This document shows, one piece after another, positions 824 through 26,119 of a stretch of 64,000 nt of DNA. The position numbers were made by a program, and so were the translations under genes. Source of the DNA: Candidatus Sericytochromatia bacterium (GTDB lineage Bacteria; Cyanobacteriota; Sericytochromatia; S15B-MN24; UBA4093); contig JAKFBU010000004.1 in assembly GCA_036676985.1 (NCBI GenBank), positions 32,001 through 96,000 on the forward strand. Reading direction: 5' to 3'. How positions within the stretch are numbered: position 1 is the stretch's first letter; every line of letters begins with the position of its first letter. Below the pieces are notes generated by a model, which saw only the letters and a program-made list of their open reading frames with translations, did no database searches and was not told the DNA's origin.

Positions 824-1848
<1,025 letters not shown>

Positions 1849-13757: not shown

Positions 13758-13766
13758 TGGCATACT
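13758..13766 (+). promoter_or_regulatory. Putative extended -10 element (TGGCATACT) for the SDR gene
   Basis: TGn-CATACT about 65 nt upstream of the start codon; same form as the -10 candidates in the 150-bp repeats. Confidence 0.4.
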
Positions 13767-14724: not shown

Positions 14725-15753
14725 ATGATTTCCGGCGTCTCGAACTCGCCCTACGCTTACCGGCCCAAGGCCACCGCGCAGACGGCTGCCGCCGCTCCGA
14801 GCGCACCGGCTGCCGATAGCTCGGCGATCGCCCCCCGTCCTCAGCAGCCCGTGGTCCAGGCGGGTGGCGGCTTCGACGCCGCAGGCCTGCTCGACGGCAT
14901 CATGAACATGCTCAAGTCGGTCGGCGCCTTCTTCGTCGGCCTCTTCAACAAGATCTTCAAGAAGGGCGGCGAGCAGCCCGCCCCGGTGGACGACAACACC
15001 CTCAAGCTGGCCCAGCAGTACAACCTGCTGCCGACCAAGGAGAACGTCGACGCCTTCGTGACCGAGGTCCAGGGCTACGCGGCCCCCGGCCCCGGCGGCT
15101 TCCAGGTCCTCGGCCCCGGCAGCCCCAACACCGAGGCCATCGGCCAGATTCAGACCGCCCTCAAGGCCTGGGGCTTCCCCGCCGAGGTGACGGGCCAGTA
15201 CGACGCCCCCACCCAGGCCGCGGTCAAGGCCTTCAAGCAGGCCAACGGCCTCCACCAGACCTACAAGACGCCCGACGGCAACTTCGCGGTCAACGAGTAC
15301 TTCGACTACCAGACCTTCCAGAAGATGCAGGAGAAGATGAACGGCGGCGGCACGACCACCCCGGCTCCCGCTCCGACCCCGACCCAGGGCAACGGCACGC
15401 TCAACTGGCAGGCGATCGCCGACCAGTACAAGCTTTACCCGACCGAGGACAACGTCCAGGCCTTCCTCGCCGAGGTGAAGAGCTACCAGACCCCCGATGC
15501 CCAGGGCTTCAAGGCCATCGGCCCCGGCTACCCCAACCAGAACGAGATCCAGGAAGTCCAGGCCGCCCTCGCCCGCGTCGGTCACCAGGTGACCCCCAAC
15601 GGCCAGTGGGACGCCGCCACCGTCAAGGCCGTCATGGACTTCAAGGCCAAGTACGGCCTGCACCAGAACTACCGCTCGCAGGACGGCAACTGGGCCATCA
15701 ACGAGTACGCCGACAAGGCGATGCTCCAGAAGCTCTCGAGCCTCCTCGGCTAG
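14725..15753 (+). CDS. Peptidoglycan-binding-domain repeat protein (2 modules)
   Basis: Two copies of LGPG...IQ.AL...G...G.YD..T..AV..FK...GL (PG_binding_1-like); AAGGAGG ribosome-binding site; strongly biased codon usage. Confidence 0.8.
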   Translation: MISGVSNSPYAYRPKATAQTAAAAPSAPAADSSAIAPRPQQPVVQAGGGFDAAGLLDGIMNMLKSVGAFFVGLFNKIFKKGGEQPAPVDDNTLKLAQQYNLLPTKENVDAFVTEVQGYAAPGPGGFQVLGPGSPNTEAIGQIQTALKAWGFPAEVTGQYDAPTQAAVKAFKQANGLHQTYKTPDGNFAVNEYFDYQTFQKMQEKMNGGGTTTPAPAPTPTQGNGTLNWQAIADQYKLYPTEDNVQAFLAEVKSYQTPDAQGFKAIGPGYPNQNEIQEVQAALARVGHQVTPNGQWDAATVKAVMDFKAKYGLHQNYRSQDGNWAINEYADKAMLQKLSSLLG

Positions 15754-15774
15754 CCCCCTTCCCTCCTCCTTCGG

Positions 15775-15805
15775 GCCTCCCGGTCGCACGACCGGGGGGC
15801 TTTTT
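15775..15805 (+). terminator. Intrinsic terminator whose hairpin resembles that of the R1-R4 repeats, preceded by an anti-SD tract
   Basis: GCCTCCCGGTCGCACGACCGGGGGGC then TTTTT; upstream CCCCCTTCCCTCCTCCTT. Confidence 0.8.
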
Positions 15806-15938
15806 CGATCTCAAACTTTAACGCAAGGATCAGGAGGGTTTACCCGGGGCTTAAACGGATCCATCGGAACGCTGCCTATAACACTTTCAACGGAACCCAG
15901 TTGGTAATCTTTGGTGGACCAGTGAGGAGGATGCAGCG

Positions 15939-17528
15939 ATGAACATTGGTGGAGTGCCTCAGACCCGGCTTCCCCAGCGCCCCGCGGTCAAGGCCGGCGG
16001 CCCGACCGACGGCGTGCAGCCCACCTACGCGCCGCAGCCGACGACCTACGTCCAGCAGCAGCCGACCGTGCAGCAGAACAACGTGCAGCCGATGGCCAAC
16101 ATCTTGGCGAACGTGTTCAACGGCATCGTCAACTTCCTGAAGAGCTTCTTCGGCGCCATCGCCAACATGTTCAAGGGCGCGAGCAACAACACCGGCACCA
16201 CCCCCGGTACCACCACGCCCGGCACGACGGTCCCCGGCACCACGGTGCCCACGACCCCGGCGCTCGACCCCAGCCAGGCGGCGATCGCTCAGCAGTACAA
16301 CCTGCTCGCCACCCCCGAGAACGTCCAGGCCTTCCTCGCCGAGGTCCAGAAGTACCAGGCGGACGGCGCCCTCGGCCCCGGCAACACCAACACGGCCGCC
16401 ATCCGTGACCTCCAGGGCGCTCTGGCTCGCCTCGGCTACCAGCTGCCCCAGACCGGCACCTACGACCAGGCGACCGCCCAGGCGGTGATGGCCTTCAAGC
16501 AGGCCAACGGCCTCCACCAGACCTATCGCTCGAAGGACGGCAACTTCGCGGTCAACGAGTACGCCGAGACCCAGACCCTGCAGGTCATCATGACGAAGCT
16601 TCAGGCCCTGATGACCCAGCAGCCCCCGGTCCAGCAGCCTCCTGTCGCCCAGCCCCCCGTCGTTCAGCCCCCCGTCGTTCAGCCCCCCGTCATTCAGCCC
16701 CCCGTGGTCCAGCCCCCGGTTCAGCAGCCCGGTCAGCCCAACTTCGCCGCGATCGCCCAGCAGTACAACCTCCTGAACAGCGCCGAGAACGTCAACGCGT
16801 TCCTCGCCGAGGTCCAGAAGTACCAGGCGGAAGGCGCGCTCGGCCCCGGCAGCAACAACCAGGGTGCCATCCGCGACCTGCAGGGTGCGCTCGCCCGCCT
16901 CGGTTACCAGCTTCCCCAGACCGGCACGTACGACCAGGCGACCGCCCAGGCGGTGATGGCCTTCAAGCAGGCCAACGGCCTTCGCCAGGGCTACAAGTCG
17001 GCCGACGGCAACTTCGCGGTCAACGAGTACGCTGAGACCCAGACCCTGCAGCTCATCATGCAGAAGCTTCAGGCGATGATGACCCAGCAGCCCGCCCCGC
17101 AGCCCGCTCCCCAGCCCGCCCCGGTTCAGCAGCCCGCCCAGCAGCAGCCCGCTCAGCCGGCCCCCGGTCAGCCCAACATCGCCGCCATCGCGCAGCAGTA
17201 CCGCATCCAGGCGACCCCCGAGAACGTCCAGGCGTTCCTCAACGAAGTGAAGCAGTACCAGACCGACGGCGCCCTCGGCCCCGGCAGCAACCAGACCCAG
17301 GCCATCAACGACCTGCAGACGGTGCTCAAGAAGTGGGGGTTCAACGTCAATCAGAACGGCCAGTTCGACCAGGCCACCCAGGCGGCGGTCATCGAGTACA
17401 AGAAGCGCAACGGCCTGCACCAGTCCTACCGCGCTCAGGACGGCAACTTCGCGGTCAACGAGTACGCCGACAAGCAGACGCTCGAGCACATCATGAAGAA
17501 GCTCGAGGCCGAGATGAAGGCGTCCTAA
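15939..17528 (+). CDS. Peptidoglycan-binding-domain repeat protein (3 modules, Q/P-rich linkers), paralog of 14725-15753
   Basis: Three near-identical AIAQQY...ENVQAFLAEV...LGPG...LQ.AL...YDQATAQAV.AFKQANGL...DGNFAVNEY modules. Confidence 0.8.
   Translation: MNIGGVPQTRLPQRPAVKAGGPTDGVQPTYAPQPTTYVQQQPTVQQNNVQPMANILANVFNGIVNFLKSFFGAIANMFKGASNNTGTTPGTTTPGTTVPGTTVPTTPALDPSQAAIAQQYNLLATPENVQAFLAEVQKYQADGALGPGNTNTAAIRDLQGALARLGYQLPQTGTYDQATAQAVMAFKQANGLHQTYRSKDGNFAVNEYAETQTLQVIMTKLQALMTQQPPVQQPPVAQPPVVQPPVVQPPVIQPPVVQPPVQQPGQPNFAAIAQQYNLLNSAENVNAFLAEVQKYQAEGALGPGSNNQGAIRDLQGALARLGYQLPQTGTYDQATAQAVMAFKQANGLRQGYKSADGNFAVNEYAETQTLQLIMQKLQAMMTQQPAPQPAPQPAPVQQPAQQQPAQPAPGQPNIAAIAQQYRIQATPENVQAFLNEVKQYQTDGALGPGSNQTQAINDLQTVLKKWGFNVNQNGQFDQATQAAVIEYKKRNGLHQSYRAQDGNFAVNEYADKQTLEHIMKKLEAEMKAS
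16618..16730 (+). repeat. Intragenic 15-bp tandem repeat encoding QPPV(V/Q/A/I)
   Basis: Repeated CAGCCCCC(C/G)GT(C/G)NNN units, about seven copies. Confidence 0.8.
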
Positions 17529-17545
17529 GCCGAGGTTCCCAATCG

Positions 17546-17694
17546 AAGAAGCCCGCCGGGTGTGTCCGGCGGGCTTCTTGGTTTCTAGAGGTGAGGTGGT
17601 GCGCTCTTGATGCTGTCATCTTGCCATACGAGGGCTCGAGAAGCAGTTGCGTCGATCGCTCCTGATATGTGATCCTGCTATCGCCCGCTTGGCC
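17546..17694 (-). ncRNA. Repeat R1: putative promoter plus ~70-nt small RNA (RNA about 17540-17611)
   Basis: One of four homologous ~150-bp elements. Minus strand reads TGGCAAGAT (extended -10), ATCAAGAGCGCACCACCTCACCTCT, then the AAGAAGCCCGCCGG/CCGGCGGGCTTCTT hairpin. The repeat itself is certain; the ncRNA call is inferred. Confidence 0.6.
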
Positions 17695-17738
17695 GCTCGA
17701 TGGGACGAGCGCCTGCTTGATCCAAAGGAGGACGGTTC

Positions 17739-17963
17739 GTGACAGTCGAGATCCATTACTGCCAGATGTGAAACTACCTGCCGCGGGCGACCCGGGTGGC
17801 CGCCGAACTCAAGGAGACGCTCGGCATCGAGGCCGCGGTCATCGCGGGAGGCAAGGGCGTGTTCGACGTGCTGGTGGACGGCAAGCTGCTGTACTCCAAG
17901 CACCTGACGGCGACCTTTCCGGAGGAGGGCGAGGTGACCCGCCTGATCCGGGCGCGCTCGTGA
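17739..17963 (+). CDS. SelW/SelT/SelH-like (Rdx family) selenoprotein with CxxU motif
   Basis: AAAGGAGG RBS and GTG start. MTVEIHYCQM-TGA(17769-17771)-NYLPRATRVAAELKETLGIEAAVIAGGKGVFDVLVDGKLLYSKHLTATFPEEGEV; Rdx homology continues past the TGA. GC hairpin follows the UGA. Missing from the ORF track. Confidence 0.88.
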
Positions 17964-18095
17964 CGCGGTCGGGCTGCCTGCGCTCGCTTGGTCGTTTCCC
18001 GTTCCGGTGGAAGATGCCAACCTTCTGATCCCTCCCCGGGTTTTGGAACACTTGGGTATAAGATTTTTAGCTCACCGAACGAGAGATACTGCACG

Positions 18096-19793
18096 ATGAT
18101 CAACGGCCTTTCTTCACCGCAACCGACGCCGCAGCGGCTCGAACGTGCCCCGCTTCCCGTGGACGCCAAGCAGATCCAGGAAGCATCCGGTGGCGTGATG
18201 ACCCGTGATGCGCTCCGCAAGACAGCCGAGGCCAAGCTGGAGAACCGCAATGTCTTTGCGCTGCTGGATGGCGGCGACCTGAACGACATGCTGCGCAACG
18301 GGACGCTGTTGCCCGAACGGGCTCATTTCACGCTCGATCGGCCCCGTTTCGTGGAGAATTCCGTGCCCCTCGTGGTGCAACTCTCCGAGAACGGTAAACA
18401 GGCGCTCCTGAACGCCGACCCAGCCTTTGCCGAGGCACTGGTCGGCGACAGCTTGCAAGGTATCAAGCCCACTACCCCGTTCCGGCTCGACTCCCACGTC
18501 GCCGAGATTCTCCTGTTTGCAGAGGACAGGGAGAAGCTCTTCACGGCTTACGCCGAGAAGGCCGCCAAGGGTGAGGTGCCAGAGACGATCGCGGGTATGC
18601 CCTTCAAGACCTACTTCGAGCAGCACATCAAGGGCGCCGACGACGTGATGGCGGAGGTGGAGCTCCAGAATTTCCGGAAGCTGATTCCGGGGTTCACGAG
18701 CCTGCCGCCCACCGAGCAGCGGGTGCGCGCGGCGCTGGGTGGGAAAATGGCCGACTATTTACCCTCGGTCCTCCCCGCGGATGTGCGACGTCAGATGGCG
18801 AATACGATGATCCGCCACCAGACCTTCGACCGGGCCACTCCCGGTAGGGGGCTGGAGGTGGCCGGCGAGATCAAGGAGTTCTTCCACGGGACGACCTCGG
18901 GCAAGCTGATCTCGCGCACCGGCTTCCGAATGCAGCCCGAATTGCTCTTCAGTAAGCTGCCCAAACGGGCGCAAAACGTCTTGGAGGATAAATTCAGGAT
19001 CCGGTTCCGATCGGCGTTCGGCATGGGGGTGTATACCGGCAACGCGACGGTCGCCAGCCGCTATGCCGCCATCAAGTCCCAAAACGCGACGAGCCCCGTT
19101 CATGTCGTCAGCGGCTTGATGGCCCTGGGCAAGACGACCGTGAATGACCTCGCCGAGGACAAGCTTGCCCATACGCGGATCGTTTCGGGACAGGATTTGG
19201 AAGGTAAGTACTTCATCACTCGCGAGCCCAAGCGTTTCACCGTCAAGGGCCTGACGACCCTGGATCCCAGGCAGACCGACGGCTGGATGCGCCATTTTCC
19301 CCAGCTCCTGAAGGCCCATTCGGCCGATCCGTTCGAGATCGGGAAGCTGTTCGATCGGTTGCCGCAAGGTCCGGCCCAGCGTGCGCTCAATGAGACTCTC
19401 AAGGGGCGCGACCCCGCGACGGTGAGGAGTGCGACCCTCTTGTTGGCTCGCCGCGGTGATGAAAAGGCACTGGCCTCTACCATGAAACTGTTGGAGGGCG
19501 TGGCCTCGCCCATGGAGCGAGAGGTGATTCAGGATACGCTCATGGCGGCTCTCAAGTCGATTGGGCCCGGACACGCCGACCGGACGCGACCCATCGCCGA
19601 GGCGGTGCTGCGGCTGCCTCCCGGTCATCGGTTCTCGCCCGAGAGTCTTGCCGAGTCCCTTTTTGAGACGCTCGGCGCGGAAATCCGGCCCTTGGTCGCG
19701 CGCCACGGTCTCCAACTCCCCCCCGCACCCGCCGAAGGGGCGCTGGCGCGGGCTTGGCAGACTGCAGCCAAGGGCTTCAGGCGCCTGCTGTAA
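18096..19793 (+). CDS. Protein with a central PARP-like ADP-ribosyltransferase domain and C-terminal HEAT-like helices
   Basis: FFHGTT...I...GF, FGMGVY, A..YA and V...ALGK motifs in PARP order; LKGRDPATVRSATLLLARRGD HEAT-like unit; atypical codon usage. Confidence 0.6.
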   Translation: MINGLSSPQPTPQRLERAPLPVDAKQIQEASGGVMTRDALRKTAEAKLENRNVFALLDGGDLNDMLRNGTLLPERAHFTLDRPRFVENSVPLVVQLSENGKQALLNADPAFAEALVGDSLQGIKPTTPFRLDSHVAEILLFAEDREKLFTAYAEKAAKGEVPETIAGMPFKTYFEQHIKGADDVMAEVELQNFRKLIPGFTSLPPTEQRVRAALGGKMADYLPSVLPADVRRQMANTMIRHQTFDRATPGRGLEVAGEIKEFFHGTTSGKLISRTGFRMQPELLFSKLPKRAQNVLEDKFRIRFRSAFGMGVYTGNATVASRYAAIKSQNATSPVHVVSGLMALGKTTVNDLAEDKLAHTRIVSGQDLEGKYFITREPKRFTVKGLTTLDPRQTDGWMRHFPQLLKAHSADPFEIGKLFDRLPQGPAQRALNETLKGRDPATVRSATLLLARRGDEKALASTMKLLEGVASPMEREVIQDTLMAALKSIGPGHADRTRPIAEAVLRLPPGHRFSPESLAESLFETLGAEIRPLVARHGLQLPPAPAEGALARAWQTAAKGFRRLL

Positions 19794-19814
19794 CGCCACT
19801 TATGCCTCACTGAA

Positions 19815-19962
19815 GGAGCCCGCCGGGTGTGCGTCCGGCGGGCTTCTGGGTTCAGAGAGGTGAGGTGGTGCGCTCTTGATGCTCTCAGGATGCCACACCT
19901 TCGCTCGATCGGCTGTCGGGACGATCGCTCCGCCCGTGTGAGCCTGCTTTCGCTCGCTTGCC
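19815..19962 (-). ncRNA. Repeat R2: putative promoter plus small RNA (RNA about 19810-19880)
   Basis: Minus strand: TGGCATCCT, ATCAAGAGCGCACCACCTCACCTCTCT, GCCCGCCGG/CCGGCGGGC hairpin. Confidence 0.6.
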
Positions 19963-20021
19963 TACTTCTCGTAGGAGGCGAGGCTCCAGCGCTTACTTCA
20001 CCAATTGATCGTGGGAACTTA

Positions 20022-20048
20022 AAGTCGCCATAAGAATGCTGGCGACTT
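20022..20048. promoter_or_regulatory. Inverted repeat, candidate operator
   Basis: AAGTCGCCA-N9-TGGCGACTT, perfect, between R2 and the phospholipase D gene. Confidence 0.45.
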
Positions 20049-20118
20049 AACACCGCGATAACAGCCTTGTCGCAAGGGACGATTGATTGCTTTTAGGCTA
20101 GACGGGGACGGTGCCGCG

Positions 20119-21363
20119 ATGCTCGACAATCTGCAGATGATCTATCGCATGGTCCGGAACGACGCTCCGAAGCGTGCCAAGGCGCTCGCCGCGTCCCCCG
20201 TCAAGTCGACCGTCCGCGCCGTTAGCCGCAGCGCGATGACGCCCGACGTGTTCATGCGCGGCCAGCTGCCGGCTCTCCAGGGCGTCCTGATCGATGGCGC
20301 GCAGGCCTTCTCGACCTTCAAGAACACCCTCTCGGGCGCCAAGAAGAGCATCTTGCTCGAGACCTTCACCTTCAAGGACGATGCCACCGGGCGCGAGATC
20401 GCCGACCTGCTCGTCAAGAAGCGGAGCCAGGGCGTGGACATCAAGGTCCTGCTCGATACCTACGGCACGGCGACCAACCTGCCGGATGCTCCGCACCTCC
20501 CGCTCTACCAGTTTCTCCACGAGAACGGCGTCGAGGTGCGGCTGCACAACCCCGAGGTCTTCTCGCTCAAGGAGGGGATGCCCCTCACCCATCGCAAGCT
20601 CACGATCGTCGACAACAAGCGCTTCCTCACCGGCGGCATGAACATCTCGGATCGCTACTCCAAGGAGTGGCACGACACCATGATCCGGGTGGATGGTCCC
20701 TCGACTCGCGAGGCCGTCGCGGCCTTCAACCGCAACTGGACCCGCGCGGGTGGCGAGGCCCTCCCCTTGCCGACCTTCAACCTGGCGGACCCCCGGGTCA
20801 AGGTGGTCTTCAACGATCCGCAGGCCAAGGAGTTCGGTCTGACCGAGGCCGTCTTCGGCGAGCTGCGCCAGGCCAAGAACCAGATCCGGATCATGGTGCC
20901 CTACCTGTCCGATCGCAAGCTGATGGACGAGCTGATCGCGGCACGGCAGCGCGGGGTTCGGGTCGAGGCCCTCTTGCCCAAGATGAACGACGAGAAGGTC
21001 TACGGCGACCTCAACAACGCGATCGCCCAGGAGCTCCTGGAAAACGGCGTCAAGGTCAAGTGGTACACCGGCAAGGACGTGCCGGGGCTCGCCAAGGAGC
21101 ACTTCAGCCACACCAAGGCGATGATCCTCGACCAGGACACGCTCATCATGGGCTCGGCCAACGCCGATAGCCGCTCCTTCAACGGCAACCACGAGTTGAA
21201 CGTCATCATCAAGGATCCGCACGTGGTCCAGGACGCCAAGCAGCGCCTCTGGCTGGCGGATTGGACCGCCAGCAAGCCCGCCAACCTCGAAGAGCTCCAG
21301 AATGCGAGCCTCTCGGACAAGGTCAAGCGCGGGGCCTGGAAGCTGCTTTCCCCCTTGCTCTAA
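20119..21363 (+). CDS. Phospholipase D / cardiolipin synthase-like (ClsB-type, no transmembrane helices)
   Basis: Two HKD motifs: HRKLTIVD...GGMN and HTKAMILD...GSAN. Confidence 0.88.
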   Translation: MLDNLQMIYRMVRNDAPKRAKALAASPVKSTVRAVSRSAMTPDVFMRGQLPALQGVLIDGAQAFSTFKNTLSGAKKSILLETFTFKDDATGREIADLLVKKRSQGVDIKVLLDTYGTATNLPDAPHLPLYQFLHENGVEVRLHNPEVFSLKEGMPLTHRKLTIVDNKRFLTGGMNISDRYSKEWHDTMIRVDGPSTREAVAAFNRNWTRAGGEALPLPTFNLADPRVKVVFNDPQAKEFGLTEAVFGELRQAKNQIRIMVPYLSDRKLMDELIAARQRGVRVEALLPKMNDEKVYGDLNNAIAQELLENGVKVKWYTGKDVPGLAKEHFSHTKAMILDQDTLIMGSANADSRSFNGNHELNVIIKDPHVVQDAKQRLWLADWTASKPANLEELQNASLSDKVKRGAWKLLSPLL

Positions 21364-21487
21364 GGACGGCATGTCCGTCGCTGGCGAGCGCGAGGATCCG
21401 CCACGCGTCGTGCAACCGGCGCCTTCCCGATGGGGCCTGTAAGCGACCCTCACGCTCAGCAGGAAGCCGACGAACTCCGGAAACGAC

Positions 21488-21635
21488 GAAGCCCGCCGGG
21501 TGTGCGACCGGCGGGCTTCTGGTTTCAGAGAGGTGAGGTGGTGCGCTCTTGATGTTCTCAGGATGCCATACCTTCGCTCGAGCGGCAGTCGGGACGATCG
21601 CTCCGCCCGTGTGAGCCTGCTTTCGCTCGCTTGCC
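21488..21635 (-). ncRNA. Repeat R3: putative promoter plus small RNA (RNA about 21482-21553)
   Basis: Nearly identical to R2; hairpin 21488-21519. Confidence 0.6.
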
Positions 21636-21655
21636 TGCTAACCGGCAAAAGGGAT

Positions 21656-21795
21656 GGCCCGCCGGGTGTGCGACCGGCGGGCCTTGGGTCAGAGAGGTGA
21701 GGTGGTGTTGATGCTCTTAGGATGCCACACCTCCAAAGGATCGGCTGTCGGTGCGATCGCTTCTCCCGTGTGACCTTGCTATCGTTCGCTTGGCC
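21656..21795 (-). ncRNA. Repeat R4: putative promoter plus small RNA (RNA about 21647-21712), in tandem with R3
   Basis: Same hairpin, CACCACCTCACCTCTCT core and TGGCATCCT. Its upstream block overlaps the stop codon of the CCA-type gene. Confidence 0.6.
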
Positions 21796-23212
21796 GGCCC
21801 TCGGCCCCCAGGTGCCGCGAGGCAAAGGCGATCGCCTCCTCCCGGCTCGCGACCTCCCCGCGGAGCTGCGCCTCGATCACCCGGTTAAGCAGCACGCCGA
21901 TGTGCTTGCCCGGCTTGAGGTCCAGCTCGCGCATGAGATCCTTGCCGTCGACGAGCCGCTGCGGCGCCGTGTAGGCTCCATCCGGTCGGTAGTAGGCCGA
22001 CAGGAGCGCGGGCAGGACCGTGGCCAGCTCGGCCGCAATGGGGCGCTCGGCGGCCTCCTGGAGCGCGAGGCTCAGGAGCAGGAGCGCCGCGCTCGCGTCC
22101 CCTGCTGCTTGAAAGAAGCGGTAGAGGGCCACCGGGTCGTCGGGCGTCCTGGTGAGCCCTTCCGGCAGCCGCTGGAGCCGCACCAGGCGCACGAGGAAAT
22201 CCCGGGCCTTGGCCGATAGCTTCAGGCGGGTCGCGATCGCCTCCACGCGCTTGGCGCCTTCGGCCTCGTACCCGTCGTAGGAGACGGCCCCGTCTGCTCC
22301 GTAGGTCGTGCAGAAGGGCTTGCCCACCTCATGCAGGAGGGCCGCGAGCCGGAGCATGACCTCGGCCGTGGCGCCGCCGCCGAGGTCCCGGGCCAGATCC
22401 GCCCGGACCTCGGCGTCATGGGTCGGCCGGCGCGCGTCGAGGCGGCGGACGGTTTCCAGCGCATGGGCCCGCCCGTTCATCCGGGGGCTCGCCACCCGCT
22501 GGAGCATGGTGAACTCCGGCACGAGCACCATGAGCACCCCGATCCCGAACAGCCGCTCGATCCACCGGAAGGCCTGCGGCAACGCCAGGATCTTGAGGAG
22601 CTCGGCCGTCGTGCGCTCCGCGGCCACGTCCAGGAGCTTGCGCTTGTAGGTCTCGACCCACTGCAGGGTCTCGAAGTCGATGTCGAAGTCCAGCGCCGCG
22701 GCGAAGCGGAACACCCGGATCAGCCGGGCGGGATCGGCCAGGAGGTTGTCGTCGCTGATGGCCCGGACGGTGCGCCGGGCGAGATCCACCAGGCCGCCCG
22801 CGGGATCGAGGGGCTCGGGCTGCGCCACGCGCTGCCCGTTGCGCACCAGGGGCAGGGCGATCGCGTTGATCGTGAGGTCCCGCTGCAGGAGATCCGCCTC
22901 CAGGTCCGCACCCTGCAAGCGCGCCAGGTCGAGGACCGCCCCCGAGTCGAGCACGACCCGCACGATGCCGAACTCCGCGTCCAAAAGGACGTAGTGGCCC
23001 TTGAGGGCGCGGGCGATCGCCTTGCCCAGGACTTCGGGATCGGCCGAGGTCACGAGATCGACGTCGAGCTGGGCGCGACCCAGGAGGGCGTCCCGCACGT
23101 AGCCGCCGACTAGCCACAGATCGCCGCCCAGCTGGGCGGCCTGGTCGCAGCAGGCGGCGAAAAGGGGCGCGGGTTCTAGGGGAACGTTCGGAGGTTGGGC
23201 AGAAAAGGGCAT
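21779..23212 (-). CDS. tRNA nucleotidyltransferase / poly(A) polymerase family protein with a degenerate HD region
   Basis: VGGYVRDALL...DVDL, DL..RDLTINAIA, DPAGG..DL, DPARLIR..RFAA, ER..AEL; C-terminal GKDLM..L.LKPG..IG. Confidence 0.88.
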   Translation of the reverse strand: MPFSAQPPNVPLEPAPLFAACCDQAAQLGGDLWLVGGYVRDALLGRAQLDVDLVTSADPEVLGKAIARALKGHYVLLDAEFGIVRVVLDSGAVLDLARLQGADLEADLLQRDLTINAIALPLVRNGQRVAQPEPLDPAGGLVDLARRTVRAISDDNLLADPARLIRVFRFAAALDFDIDFETLQWVETYKRKLLDVAAERTTAELLKILALPQAFRWIERLFGIGVLMVLVPEFTMLQRVASPRMNGRAHALETVRRLDARRPTHDAEVRADLARDLGGGATAEVMLRLAALLHEVGKPFCTTYGADGAVSYDGYEAEGAKRVEAIATRLKLSAKARDFLVRLVRLQRLPEGLTRTPDDPVALYRFFQAAGDASAALLLLSLALQEAAERPIAAELATVLPALLSAYYRPDGAYTAPQRLVDGKDLMRELDLKPGKHIGVLLNRVIEAQLRGEVASREEAIAFASRHLGAEGRPSER

Positions 23213-24689: not shown

Positions 24690-24768
24690 TCACGTATCTT
24701 TACAATCTCTCGTCGGCCTCCGGCGGATGCCCGGCCGGCGGGCGGGATGCGAGGCAAGGAGAGGGGTC

Positions 24769-25125
24769 ATGAGAACGCGCGAGATCGATCGGCCCATGTG
24801 GAACGCCTACATGGCCCAGATCAGCAACCTGTGCATGAACCGTCCCATCACCCTGGAGATCGTCAGCGAGGAGCTCGGCGACCAGATGGTGGCGAACCAC
24901 GTGCCCTTCATGGGCATGGCGCCCGAGCAGAAGGGATCGGCCGCCTGCGCGGTGGACATCGAGCTGGGCCGCCTGGGATCGACCGACCACCTGATGCAGG
25001 AGATCGCCTGCGCCACGCGCGTCGTCGTCCGGGAGGACGACGACGGCACGCTGATGGCCATGGACATCGAGGGCGAAGACCCCACGACCCACGCCCCGAT
25101 CAAGGCCATCGTGACCTGGGATTAG
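24769..25125 (+). CDS. DUF5335-like protein
   Basis: AAGGAG RBS; MRTREIDR..W..Y...S......ITLEI....LGDQ......PF.G pattern. Confidence 0.6.
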   Translation: MRTREIDRPMWNAYMAQISNLCMNRPITLEIVSEELGDQMVANHVPFMGMAPEQKGSAACAVDIELGRLGSTDHLMQEIACATRVVVREDDDGTLMAMDIEGEDPTTHAPIKAIVTWD

Positions 25126-25156
25126 TCACCCTCCGGAGTGTTCTAAGGGGGATGCC

Positions 25157-26119
25157 GTGGCCTACTACATCGTCGGGATCGACCTCGGCGGCACCAAGAT
25201 CGCGTCGGCGCTGCTCGATACCGACCTCTCGATCGTCAAGAACGACACGGTGCGCACGGACAACAGCCGGGGCCCCGAGGGGGTCGCCGACCAGATGGCC
25301 GAGTCGGTCAAGCGCCTCACGGAGGGCTTGGGCCGCGAGGCGGTCCTGGGGGTGGGCGTCGCGAGCGCCGGCCTCGTGGAGCCCGGTACGGGCAAGGTCC
25401 TCTACTCGCCCAACCTCGACTGGCGGGACGTGCCCCTGCGCGACATGCTCAGCGAGCGGCTCGGCATGGAGGAGGTCTACGTCGACAACGACGTGAACAT
25501 GGCCGCCCTCGGCGAGCTGCACTTCGGCGCGGGCCAGGGGGCGCGGCACATGATCTGCGTCTTCGTGGGCACGGGCATCGGCTCGGGCATCGTCATCGAC
25601 GGCCACCTCTACGCGGGCGCCAACGGCTTTGCGGGCGAGGTGGGCCACACCACCATCGACTGGGACGGGCCGCCCTGCCCGAGCGGCAACCCGGGCTGCT
25701 GGGAGTCCTACGCCTCCGGCACGGCCATGGCCCGCCGGGCCCGGGAGGCCCTGGAGCGGGGCGAGACCTCGATCCTCAAGGACATGGTCGGCGGCGACCT
25801 CGCGCAGCTGCGCGTGGAGACCATCGCCGAGGCCGACCGGGACGGGGACGCGCTGGCCCGCCGGATCCTCGCGGAGACCGGGGAGTACCTGGGTGCCGGC
25901 CTCTCGAACCTCGTCAACACGCTCAACCCCGAGCTCATCGTCATGGGCGGCGGGGTGATCCGCGGGGTGCCCCAGCTCTTCGACCTGGCCGAGGCGAGCA
26001 TGCGGCGCCGGTCGCTGCCCGATGCCGTCGCCGCCGTGCGCACGGCCCGGGCGCACTTCGGCCGGGAGGCGGGCGTCATCGGAGCGGGCGTCCTCGTGAA
26101 GCTCGCGGGCAAGCCGTGA
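25157..26119 (+). CDS. glk: ROK-family sugar kinase (glucokinase)
   Basis: GIDLGGTK, NDVNMAALGE, GTGIGSG, GEVGH, CPSGNPGCWESYASG. Confidence 0.88.
   Translation: MAYYIVGIDLGGTKIASALLDTDLSIVKNDTVRTDNSRGPEGVADQMAESVKRLTEGLGREAVLGVGVASAGLVEPGTGKVLYSPNLDWRDVPLRDMLSERLGMEEVYVDNDVNMAALGELHFGAGQGARHMICVFVGTGIGSGIVIDGHLYAGANGFAGEVGHTTIDWDGPPCPSGNPGCWESYASGTAMARRAREALERGETSILKDMVGGDLAQLRVETIAEADRDGDALARRILAETGEYLGAGLSNLVNTLNPELIVMGGGVIRGVPQLFDLAEASMRRRSLPDAVAAVRTARAHFGREAGVIGAGVLVKLAGKP

Follow-up and report, generated by a model that had tools for sequence, protein, structure and literature searches.

The window analyzed here is a stretch of 64,000 nucleotides (nt) from a Candidatus Sericytochromatia bacterium, positions 32001-96000 of contig C4 (JAKFBU010000004.1) in an assembly (GCA_036676985.1, hereafter G000) of 4.68 Mb in 79 contigs that is scored 100% complete and has 67.3% GC. 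It carries one family of repeats, present as four copies of 155 nt (R1 to R4; Table 1) with 62-100% identity to the reference copy. Comparison with related genomes indicates that, taken alone, the reading of these repeats as genes for small RNAs (sRNAs) is very probably correct, and we consider it likely that the repeats are such genes and that their products repress lipoproteins. The original prediction had placed four elements here in a single orientation, and both a repeat search and a minus-strand alignment agree with it. The four copies align with a mean column identity of 76%, and indels within the element are limited to a gap of 5 nt in R4 and to small ones close to the hairpin. All the parts that had been listed are present: the block AAGCG..CGA.AGCA.G.TCACA, GCGATCG, TGGCA(TCC/AGA)T, ATCAA, the invariant CACCACCTCACCTCT and, in each of the four copies, a hairpin GCCCGCCGG/CCGGCGGGC with a CACAC loop. 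The 15-mer CACCACCTCACCTCT occurs four times in the window, always on the minus strand (0.16 expected; none of 100 shuffles reached four). A covariance model (CM) of the family, run over the window, recovered only these four elements as members. Two further places, 13758 and 24684, had been thought to show the same -10 form and turned out to be unrelated; the 9-mer at 13758 lies on the plus strand, and 10 of 100 shuffles match likewise.

Table 1. Coordinates of the four repeat copies, their predicted parts and two candidate target genes. Positions are those of the window unless a G000 contig is given; TSS, predicted transcription start site; PWM, score with the position weight matrix of the block; aa, amino acids.
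Feature	Position	Strand	Details
Repeat copy R1	17543-17697	-	
R1 predicted sRNA	17541-17611	-	CM 75.5 bits; TSS A 17611, from -10 spacing; fold z = -6.7
R1 seed		-	altered, CCUCUAGAAAC in place of CCUCUCUGAAC; poor rank on T1 and T2
R1 terminator hairpin	17548-17577	-	GAAGCCCGCCGG / CCGGCGGGCUUC, loop ACACAC (17560-17565)
R1 -10 hexamer	17618-17623	-	CAAGAT, TGG before (extended -10)
R1 upstream conserved block	17667-17692	-	CCAAGCGGGCGATAGCAGGATCACAT; putative activator site; PWM 35.8; ends 45 nt before hexamer
Repeat copy R2	19812-19966	-	
R2 predicted sRNA	19809-19880	-	CM 88 bits; TSS A 19880
R2 seed	~19850-19870	-	CACCACCUCACCUCUCUGAAC
R2 terminator hairpin	19815-19846	-	loop 19827-19834
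R2 -10 hexamer	19887-19892	-	CATCCT, TGG before
R2 upstream conserved block	19936-19961	-	GCAAGCGAGCGAAAGCAGGCTCACAC; PWM 36.1
Repeat copy R3	21485-21639	-	
R3 predicted sRNA	21480-21553	-	CM 90.1 bits; TSS A 21553; tandem, downstream of R4
R3 terminator hairpin	21488-21519	-	loop 21500-21507
R3 -10 hexamer	21560-21565	-	CATCCT
R3 upstream conserved block	21609-21634	-	PWM 36.1
Repeat copy R4	21644-21798	-	
R4 predicted sRNA	21646-21712	-	CM 86.6 bits; TSS A 21712; 5-nt deletion between TSS and seed
R4 terminator hairpin	21656-21683	-	21683-21656 plus tail CCCTTTTG; terminator scan; loop 21666-21673
R4 -10 hexamer	21719-21724	-	CATCCT
R4 upstream conserved block	21768-21793	-	PWM 33.6; overlaps last codons of a CCA/poly(A)-polymerase-like gene, 21779-23212 (-)
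T1, candidate target	C23:219394-220659	-	421 aa; lipoprotein signal (..AGC..)
T2, candidate target	C6:65171-66247	-	358 aa; lipoprotein signal (..AGC..)

Four copies had been taken as the size of the family. This number stands for the window and does not hold for the genome, where the 15-mer has seven exact matches (the four of the window, a pair on C39 about 1 kb apart and one on C59; none for a reversed-pattern control) and where three divergent paralogs, on C23, C25 and C28, score 45-51 bits with the CM. The CM was made from 36 members and used with a member cut-off of 40 bits. At or above this cut-off G000 has ten members, and eight relatives from the same family (f1) have 8, 15, 6, 9, 8, 11, 3 and 2; the ninth f1 relative (83% complete, 620 contigs) has none. 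BLAST gave the same picture in a panel of 41 genomes, namely G000 and 40 relatives, with the element detected in eight of the nine other f1 genomes and in none of the 31 genomes from other families. Matches at E <= 0.001 number up to 30 in a single genome. The other 17 genomes of the order yielded only weak CM matches, with E values of 6.7e-5 or worse; among five of these that we aligned, four resemble generic terminators and one, in genome G021, contains a CACCCCUCUG stretch and is possibly a distant relative. Scanning the whole collection for the hairpin pattern returned at least 118 stretches, mostly single chance matches in other GC-rich taxa, and this pattern is too generic for mapping the family; those records in which it matched more than once bear Candidatus Sericytochromatia in their titles. 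The proposal that the family is undescribed agrees with Rfam 15, which has no match over the 64-kb window at gathering thresholds. The best sub-threshold matches within 17400-22000, ncr1175 at 22.7 bits (gathering threshold 60) and ar14 at 21.4 bits (58.8), are at noise level.

Positions of the genes are shared between closely related genomes. The sister genome G001 has one sRNA gene after the ortholog (78% identity) of the PG-binding gene that precedes R1, and another after the ortholog (75% identity) of the CCA-enzyme gene next to R4. No terminal inverted repeats and no duplicated flanks are visible in the alignments, and the ends of the element, CAAGCG... and ...GGGCTTC, are not inverted repeats of each other. 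Because of this synteny and the lack of inverted repeats or duplicated flanks, the family is best read as vertically inherited, having expanded by local and dispersed duplication, and not as a miniature inverted-repeat transposable element (MITE). Dozens to hundreds of dispersed copies had been named as the mark of a MITE; we counted 2-15 members per genome at 40 bits or more, at positions that are syntenic within the genus.

Evidence for a promoter comes from 73 distinct members for which 100 nt of upstream sequence were available. The conserved block lies at one fixed offset in 50 of these (48 distinct), and 45 nt after its TCAC stands a hexamer that occurs in 13 spellings (CAAGAT, CATCCT, GACACT, GAAGAT, CATACT, CAGAAT, GAAACT, TATGCT, CAAGAC, CATTCT, TACTCT, GAGCAT and CATGAT). 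Position 2 is A in 48/48 and position 6 is T in 47/48, with positions 1, 3, 4 and 5 free; TGn precedes the hexamer in 37/48; and the sixth and seventh bases past it (-1/+1) are C-A in 42/48. To judge from this comparison, the pattern is the signature of a sigma-70 extended -10 element with its predicted start at the A. All four 5' ends that had been forecast for the window coincide with the A located 7 nt after the nAnnnT hexamer, a rule taken from the 48 distinct relatives. These genes would thus possess a promoter of their own directly upstream, as is expected of a gene for a trans-acting base-pairing sRNA. Five members from five genomes in two genera, which we term subfamily B and which include the C23 paralog of G000 (C23:247475), are without the upstream block. 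The promoter reads TTGCAA-N17-CATGAT in three of the five, and in the remaining two CATAAT or AATAAT stands at the position of the hexamer; the same seed follows in all five, and the terminator of three includes at least seven U in a row (U7-9). Such a paralog, with what appear to be a textbook promoter and terminator, provides in our view the strongest single argument for the minus strand.

The upstream block itself is closely tied to these genes. With a weight matrix of its 26 bp, only ten sites in G000 reach 20 bits, and nine of them are sRNA promoters (those of the seven canonical copies and of the C25 and C28 paralogs). Because of its fixed 45-bp phasing, its absence from the subfamily with a -35 box and its near-exclusive link to sRNA genes, we predict that the block is the binding site of a dedicated activator; both the existence and the identity of this regulator are presumptive. 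The block does not act as RNA structure: the 90 nt upstream have an RNAalifold energy of 0 on both strands (48 sequences), and the whole element folds only as the terminator. We also considered a CAC...GTG hairpin in the upstream region and dropped it, as the mean single-sequence minimum free energy of this region, -7.7, compares with -6.7 for shuffles and the RNAalifold energy is 0. The sRNA upstream regions often hold GCGATCG.

From the predicted start to the U-rich tail, the RNA would be about 65-72 nt long, with a fold that consists of an open 5' half and a GC hairpin of 10-14 bp (z -4.2 to -6.7). Across 36 sequences the 12 pairs of this hairpin are 97.4% paired, and four outer pairs change on both sides (37 cells), a level that none of 500 shuffles reached. 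T makes up a fraction of 0.41 in the 10 nt past the hairpin (68 members), compared with roughly 0.16 T in the 67.3% GC genome. The genes therefore appear to end in a Rho-independent terminator, as an sRNA gene should. A different, short stem in subfamily B, CCAG(U/C)U / AGCUGG, which has the seed in its loop, contains U-G in genus g1 where genus g2 has C-G (g1 to g4 are our labels for genera), and this U-G pairs on the minus strand only. The terminator hairpin has a T-rich tail on the plus strand also. A convergent gene faces five of the seven canonical copies, and for this reason the hairpin probably terminates transcription in both directions. Its 8-bp stem core is identical in 35/36 sequences, the remaining one having a single change, and the loop is CACA in 36/36, within ..CACAC(C). 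This constraint on stem core and loop exceeds the needs of termination.

Within the open 5' half, CCTCT(C/A) is present in 69 of the 73 members, mostly as CCTCTCTGA or CCTCTCGA. The seed core CCUCUCUGA (in some g2 and all g3 members CCUCUCGA) is nearly invariant, and the leader that precedes it varies by subfamily. The predicted folds leave the seed unpaired; that of subfamilies B and C sits in the loop of a short stem. One locus, L023 (G005:C108; about 1490-1604, minus strand), has a tandem double seed, ACCUCUCUGAACC and then CCCUCUCUGAACC, before the terminator. There is no 16S ribosomal RNA in the G000 assembly, so the organism's own anti-Shine-Dalgarno tail cannot be read from it. The original prediction of minus-strand RNAs of about 70 nt with a C-rich anti-Shine-Dalgarno (SD) seed, their own promoter and an intrinsic terminator fits every computational test that we ran.

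Candidate targets follow from the seed. G000 has 11 occurrences of the 11-mer TCAGAGAGGTG, which complements the seed core. Nine of them are sRNA genes, and the remaining ones precede two paralogous genes, T1 and T2, at distances of 4 and 6 nt from the ATG. Their products have only weak WD40/PD40-type (beta-propeller) matches and no NCBIfam name, and homologs of this T family are found in all ten f1 genomes. A search of these ten genomes gave 24 sites with the 11-mer outside sRNA genes, spread over nine genomes; 19 of these sites are located 3-10 nt before a start codon. All but one of these start-proximal sites (18/19) belong to proteins with a lipobox, mostly from the T family and from a second family of about 500 aa; three consecutive genes in genome G002 each have a site of their own, and the canonical seed finds one of its best matches at the ortholog of the second family in G000 (C61:49130). 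Note that sites outside g3 were found via the 11-mer, so their core complementarity is given by construction, and the independent observations are the position of the sites and the genes that follow. When 20-nt seed windows were ranked against 4748 crude start regions (-30 to +6), T1 and T2 came first and second for the C23 paralog, second and first for the C28 paralog, and sixth and tenth for the C25 paralog. For the canonical copies, ranks were 24-84 for four of the seven and 70-209 for two whose seed ends in CUGACC; R1, with its altered seed, ranked them 615 and 1352. Taken together, a conserved and accessible seed and complementary mRNA sites, further features expected of such an sRNA, appear to be present.

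Changes in the seed can be compared with changes in the sites. In g3, the seed AGCACCUCUCGA stands opposite an orthologous ribosome-binding site that reads UUGAGAGGUGCUU, and the longest perfect run is 10 between g3 sites and g3 sRNAs and 6-8 with the others. The sRNAs of g4 end in CUGAGC in 17/20 and the sites read GCUCAG in 4/4; those of g2 mostly end in CUGAAC, and 8/9 sites read GUUCAG. By the measure of the longest perfect run, cognate preference is small or absent for g1, g2 and g4. Seed-site co-evolution is, on this comparison, clear for g3 only and suggestive elsewhere. Predicted pairing between the sRNA and the 5' regions of T1 and T2 involves CUCUCUGA and UCAGAGAG.

Two other features of the target 5' regions deserve mention. 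GGUGUG directly follows the SD in 9/12 target sites of g2 and g4 and in 0/6 of g1, and one g4 site added later reads GGUGAAUGAC. In most g2 and g4 targets, the GUGUG after the SD may pair with the invariant CACAC loop of the terminator and so provide a second contact. Further upstream, about 30-60 nt before the ribosome-binding site, T-family 5' regions from two genera (G000 C23:220680-220790 and L276, G007:C6, at 160-180) have a (GT)n run and CCATTCACCCA, which may be a conserved promoter or leader.

We propose the following mechanism. Each unit of about 150 bp would be a self-contained gene for a trans-acting sRNA on the minus strand. A promoter that lacks a -35 box (TGn and nAnnnT) would initiate at the A of CATCAA, and its activity probably depends on a regulator that binds C(A/G)A(G/C)C..CG..A(G)C....TCAC, 45 bp upstream of the hexamer. 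The transcript would comprise an unstructured C/U-rich 5' half followed by a GC-rich intrinsic terminator. Its putative 13-nt seed, (CA)CCUCUCUGA(A/G)C, could pair with G(C/U)UCAGAGAGGUG, and this pairing would cover the SD together with the preceding 4-6 nt. The sites precede the start codons of the T lipoproteins, and those of one or more additional lipoprotein families, by 3-10 nt. The most likely effect of pairing is to keep ribosomes from binding. The anatomy of the genes, their strand, the promoter and terminator signatures, the conservation of the seed and the position of the complementary sites all emerge from comparison among related genomes. We infer that the genes are transcribed and that the RNAs repress rather than activate their targets.

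Several observations weigh against this proposal. A simple scan for the two hexamers of a sigma-70 promoter found none in 17300-22100, a result that fits promoters without a -35 box that need an activator, and a terminator scan of the same region found only that of R4. The strand bias of the terminator stem is weak, with 15 G-U to 8 A-C cells on the proposed strand. Among the runs listed as containing the locus, none is recorded as RNA; one labelled RNA-Seq is in our judgment probably DNA, and this run and two DNA runs gave contigs only, which carry information on neither strand nor transcript ends. A search of G000 for Hfq found none. On the side of the targets, the divergent paralogs fit T1 and T2 better than the four canonical copies in the window, among which R1 is a poor fit. 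For the whole 33-nt 5' half, duplex energies against 4755 crude gene starts have a 1% quantile of -30.9, versus -28.3 to -29.9 for shuffled seeds, a margin too small to discriminate; the short seed windows used for the ranking were informative. Of 24 T homologs, nine have TCAGAGAGGTG before the start and two, from g3, have GAGAGGTGC, so that the motif or its g3 form is present in only 11/24; five have a partial match and eight have none. The longest run at g2 sites is 9.9 with g2 sRNAs, compared with 11.4 with those of g1 and 11.0 with those of g4. Furthermore, the 11-mer includes the SD-like GAGG, and the bias of the sites toward ribosome-binding sites is partly expected for this reason.

We weighed five other explanations of the repeats. 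The product could be a plus-strand peptide of 20 residues, M-L-(S/L)-(G/S)-C-H...TGA, in which case the seed would be the reverse complement of its SD, located 8-10 nt before the ATG. This open reading frame (ORF) keeps its ATG, its 60-nt length without indels and its TGA in 21 distinct copies from three genera, its N-terminus resembles a lipobox, the 5-nt deletion of R4 falls outside it, and many differences within G000 look synonymous (CTC/CTG, CAC/CAT, GGG/GGT/GGC). However, mean column entropy over codons 2-20 of the 21 copies is 1.20, 1.15 and 1.25 at codon positions 1, 2 and 3, without periodicity, and codon 3 varies at its first two bases but never at its third. In one copy codon 8 is an in-frame TGA, there is a 2-nt deletion at the ATG in g2 and a frame-shifting 1-nt insertion in g3, the 27 nt past the TGA are better conserved than the ORF and contain in-frame stops, and subfamilies B and C retain the seed, promoter and terminator but not the ORF. 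Moreover, a ribosome-binding site and an ATG on the plus strand are just what is expected opposite an sRNA complementary to an SD and start codon, and such an arrangement has been described for the csRNAs of streptococci (PMC3091779). We regard a coding function as highly improbable. With it falls the idea that the TGA is read as selenocysteine or cysteine, given the missing periodicity, the frame-breaking indels and the stops that follow. More serious, if still unlikely, is the possibility that the RNA acts mainly by binding a protein, through its C/U stretch or its stem and CACAC loop, and not by pairing with mRNA. The near-invariance of stem core and loop goes beyond what a terminator requires, high copy number is typical of protein-titrating RNAs, and G000 has a CsrA homolog (C50:24465-24620, plus strand, 87.8 bits). 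Yet the loops of the RNA have no CsrA-type GGA motifs, complements of the seed concentrate on the ribosome-binding sites of one protein family, and the seed changes of g3 are mirrored in the g3 sites.

Three explanations remain. The units might be repeats that are passively transcribed or not transcribed at all, serving as a module that terminates in both directions or having spread through the genome as a small mobile element. Three of the four window copies stand just after plus-strand genes, with a T-rich tail on that side of the hairpin also, assemblies break and depth rises at the copies as they do at any repeat, and CM matches at E <= 0.001 are as numerous as noted above. But a mobile element should show shared inverted repeats at its ends or a duplicated flank, neither of which we saw, and R1 and R4 are syntenic in the sister genome; a terminator module would have no need for a phased nAnnnT, a block at a fixed spacing of 45 bp or a seed kept across four genera, and one copy has no upstream gene to terminate on the plus-equivalent strand. 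We give this explanation little credence. Equally small is the chance that the sRNAs are released from longer transcripts, be it a whole RNA of 150 nt or a processed 3' untranslated region, with nAnnnT not being a promoter. It is true that R4, the C39 copy at 205450 and the C59 copy directly follow co-directional genes. R1, R2 and the C39 copy at 206527, however, have divergent genes upstream, the upstream 90 nt show no conserved structure on either strand, and subfamily B has a canonical -35 box at the right distance in the place of the block. Finally, TGGCA-N8-GCA, found in 3/4 window copies and in two of the three other canonical copies, fits the GG-N10-GC of a sigma-54 promoter, and the block, about 60-85 bp upstream of the start, could serve an activator ATPase as its enhancer, the arrangement known from the Qrr sRNAs of Vibrio. 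We can all but dismiss this version, save for an rpoN located outside the assembled sequence. A search for rpoN (TIGR02395) gave no candidate in a genome scored as complete, while rpoN was detected in control genomes that have it; PF00158 has only six weak matches (best E 1e-7); the GC at -12 is lost in relatives, as in CAAGATACCCCCA; and the pattern occurs five times in the window against 2.46 expected, which is no enrichment. In our judgment minus-strand sRNA genes thus remain the best account of the repeats.

The antisense strand of the sRNA genes has a further property. On the plus strand of canonical copies, for example at 19852-19945, the sequence reads SD-N8-ATG and then a lipobox-like L-(S/L)-(G/S)-C, without coding selection. 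Since an SD, an ATG and an L-S-G-C like that of a lipobox can still be read there, inverted duplication of target 5' ends may have given rise to the sRNA genes.

Known sibling sRNAs offer several points of comparison. The LhrC sRNAs of Listeria monocytogenes (LhrC1-5, Rli22 and Rli33-1) are multicopy siblings, partly in tandem, whose CU-rich motifs pair with AG-rich ribosome-binding sites of cell-envelope mRNAs and block translation (PMC8079631). As described there, pairing is independent of Hfq, most copies are under the control of LisRK, a two-component system for envelope stress, and the terminator loop holds an additional motif; the seven siblings are, according to this 2021 review, the highest number reported (PMC8079631). 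The number of siblings found here exceeds seven. By analogy, the two systems would be alike in having several siblings, some of them in tandem, with a C/U-rich unpaired stretch directed against the ribosome-binding sites of envelope proteins. They differ in that LhrC has a repeated UCCC, with two or three such motifs located in loop A, a single-stranded stretch and the terminator loop of an RNA of 105-121 nt with two stem-loops, whereas the RNAs predicted here are about 65-72 nt long, with one hairpin, a ..CACAC. loop and one long seed block, CACCUCUCUGA(A/G)C. The phyla also differ, and there is no sequence or Rfam relationship.

The promoter arrangement resembles that of the csRNAs of streptococci, which belong to the CiaRH regulon. 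Two to six similar csRNA genes occur per genome, each with a regulator site phased to the -10, no -35, a start 7 nt after the -10 and a terminator (PMC3091779). The csRNAs carry an unpaired stretch complementary to the SD and start codon, and they were found by a search for promoter plus terminator (PMC3091779). The family described here likewise has a phased regulator site (predicted), no -35 and a start 7 nt after the -10, and in its canonical copies a CAU is found at the predicted 5' end or immediately in front of it. In contrast to the csRNAs, the CiaR repeat TTTAAG-N5-TTTAAG was not seen in the upstream 100 nt of the 73 members, the block stands about 45-70 bp upstream of the -10 whereas the CiaR repeat adjoins it, and there is no Rfam match. 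The ar14 ("cuckoo") RNAs of Alphaproteobacteria (RF02344), multicopy and with C-rich anti-SD motifs, are the only named sRNA family with more than one weak match in the region. Those matches, at 21.4 and 17.2 bits against a gathering threshold of 58.8, do not make the elements members, and the elements belong to neither the LhrC nor the csRNA family, whose defining motifs they lack. The ar14 RNAs carry CCUCCUCCC motifs in two hairpin loops, whereas here a single-stranded 5' arm contains the seed, except in subfamilies B and C, where it occupies the loop of a single stem. A lipoprotein mRNA is also the target of MicL from E. coli, an envelope-stress sRNA whose main role is to repress lpp. MicL is single-copy, Hfq-dependent, cut from within a coding region and devoted to one target. 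The family described here differs in its many siblings and in having targets that are paralogs of one another.

Other features of the neighborhood and of the host genome may be noted. Adjacent genes at 14725-15753 and 15939-17528 (both plus strand) encode proteins with repeated PG_binding_1 domains; the second, in which a 15-nt tandem repeat (16605-16730) encodes a Pro/Gln-rich stretch, is syntenic in G001 together with the sRNA gene that follows it. A GC-rich hairpin with a T5 tail at 15774-15807, after the first of these genes, is 79-81% complementary to the sRNA terminators and gives a plus-strand CM match of 19.9 bits; it looks like an ordinary terminator of similar make. About 45 bp from the upstream block of R1, on the opposite strand, starts a gene of 74 codons (17739-17963, plus strand) for a SelW/SelT/SelH (Rdx) protein, with an in-frame TGA in C-Q-M-U (CxxU). 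It matches PF10262 at E 2.9e-18 and NF041051 at 85.4 bits, against a cut-off of 88, and its product is probably a selenoprotein. The ORFs at 18096-19793 (565 codons, between R1 and R2) and 24747-25496 (249 codons), both on the plus strand, have no Pfam match. The cyanobacterial HIP1 octamer GCGATCGC, present for example at 21826-21833, occurs 2729 times in the 4.68 Mb, compared with 70-800 times for the other GC-rich octamers that we counted.

Sericytochromatia are known only as metagenome-assembled genomes, and a literature search, judged by title and abstract, found no paper on their regulatory RNAs. New here are the size and spread of the family, the logic of its promoters, a concrete set of targets, and the rejection of the ORF, sigma-54 and mobile-element readings. 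Comparison of promoters and terminators over a few related genomes can fix the strand, start and targets of an sRNA without RNA data, and the CM can be used for annotating further genomes. The circuit that we propose is testable from sequence, as it offers a candidate regulator site, at least ten sRNA genes, a 13-nt seed and named envelope-lipoprotein targets. In its most complete form, one dedicated regulator would drive 10-15 sibling sRNAs that clamp the ribosome-binding sites of a lipoprotein family, a possibility that we put forward tentatively and regard as rather unlikely in full. If true, this would be the largest set of sibling sRNAs on record, and the non-photosynthetic lineage that is sister to cyanobacteria would gain its first known post-transcriptional circuit.

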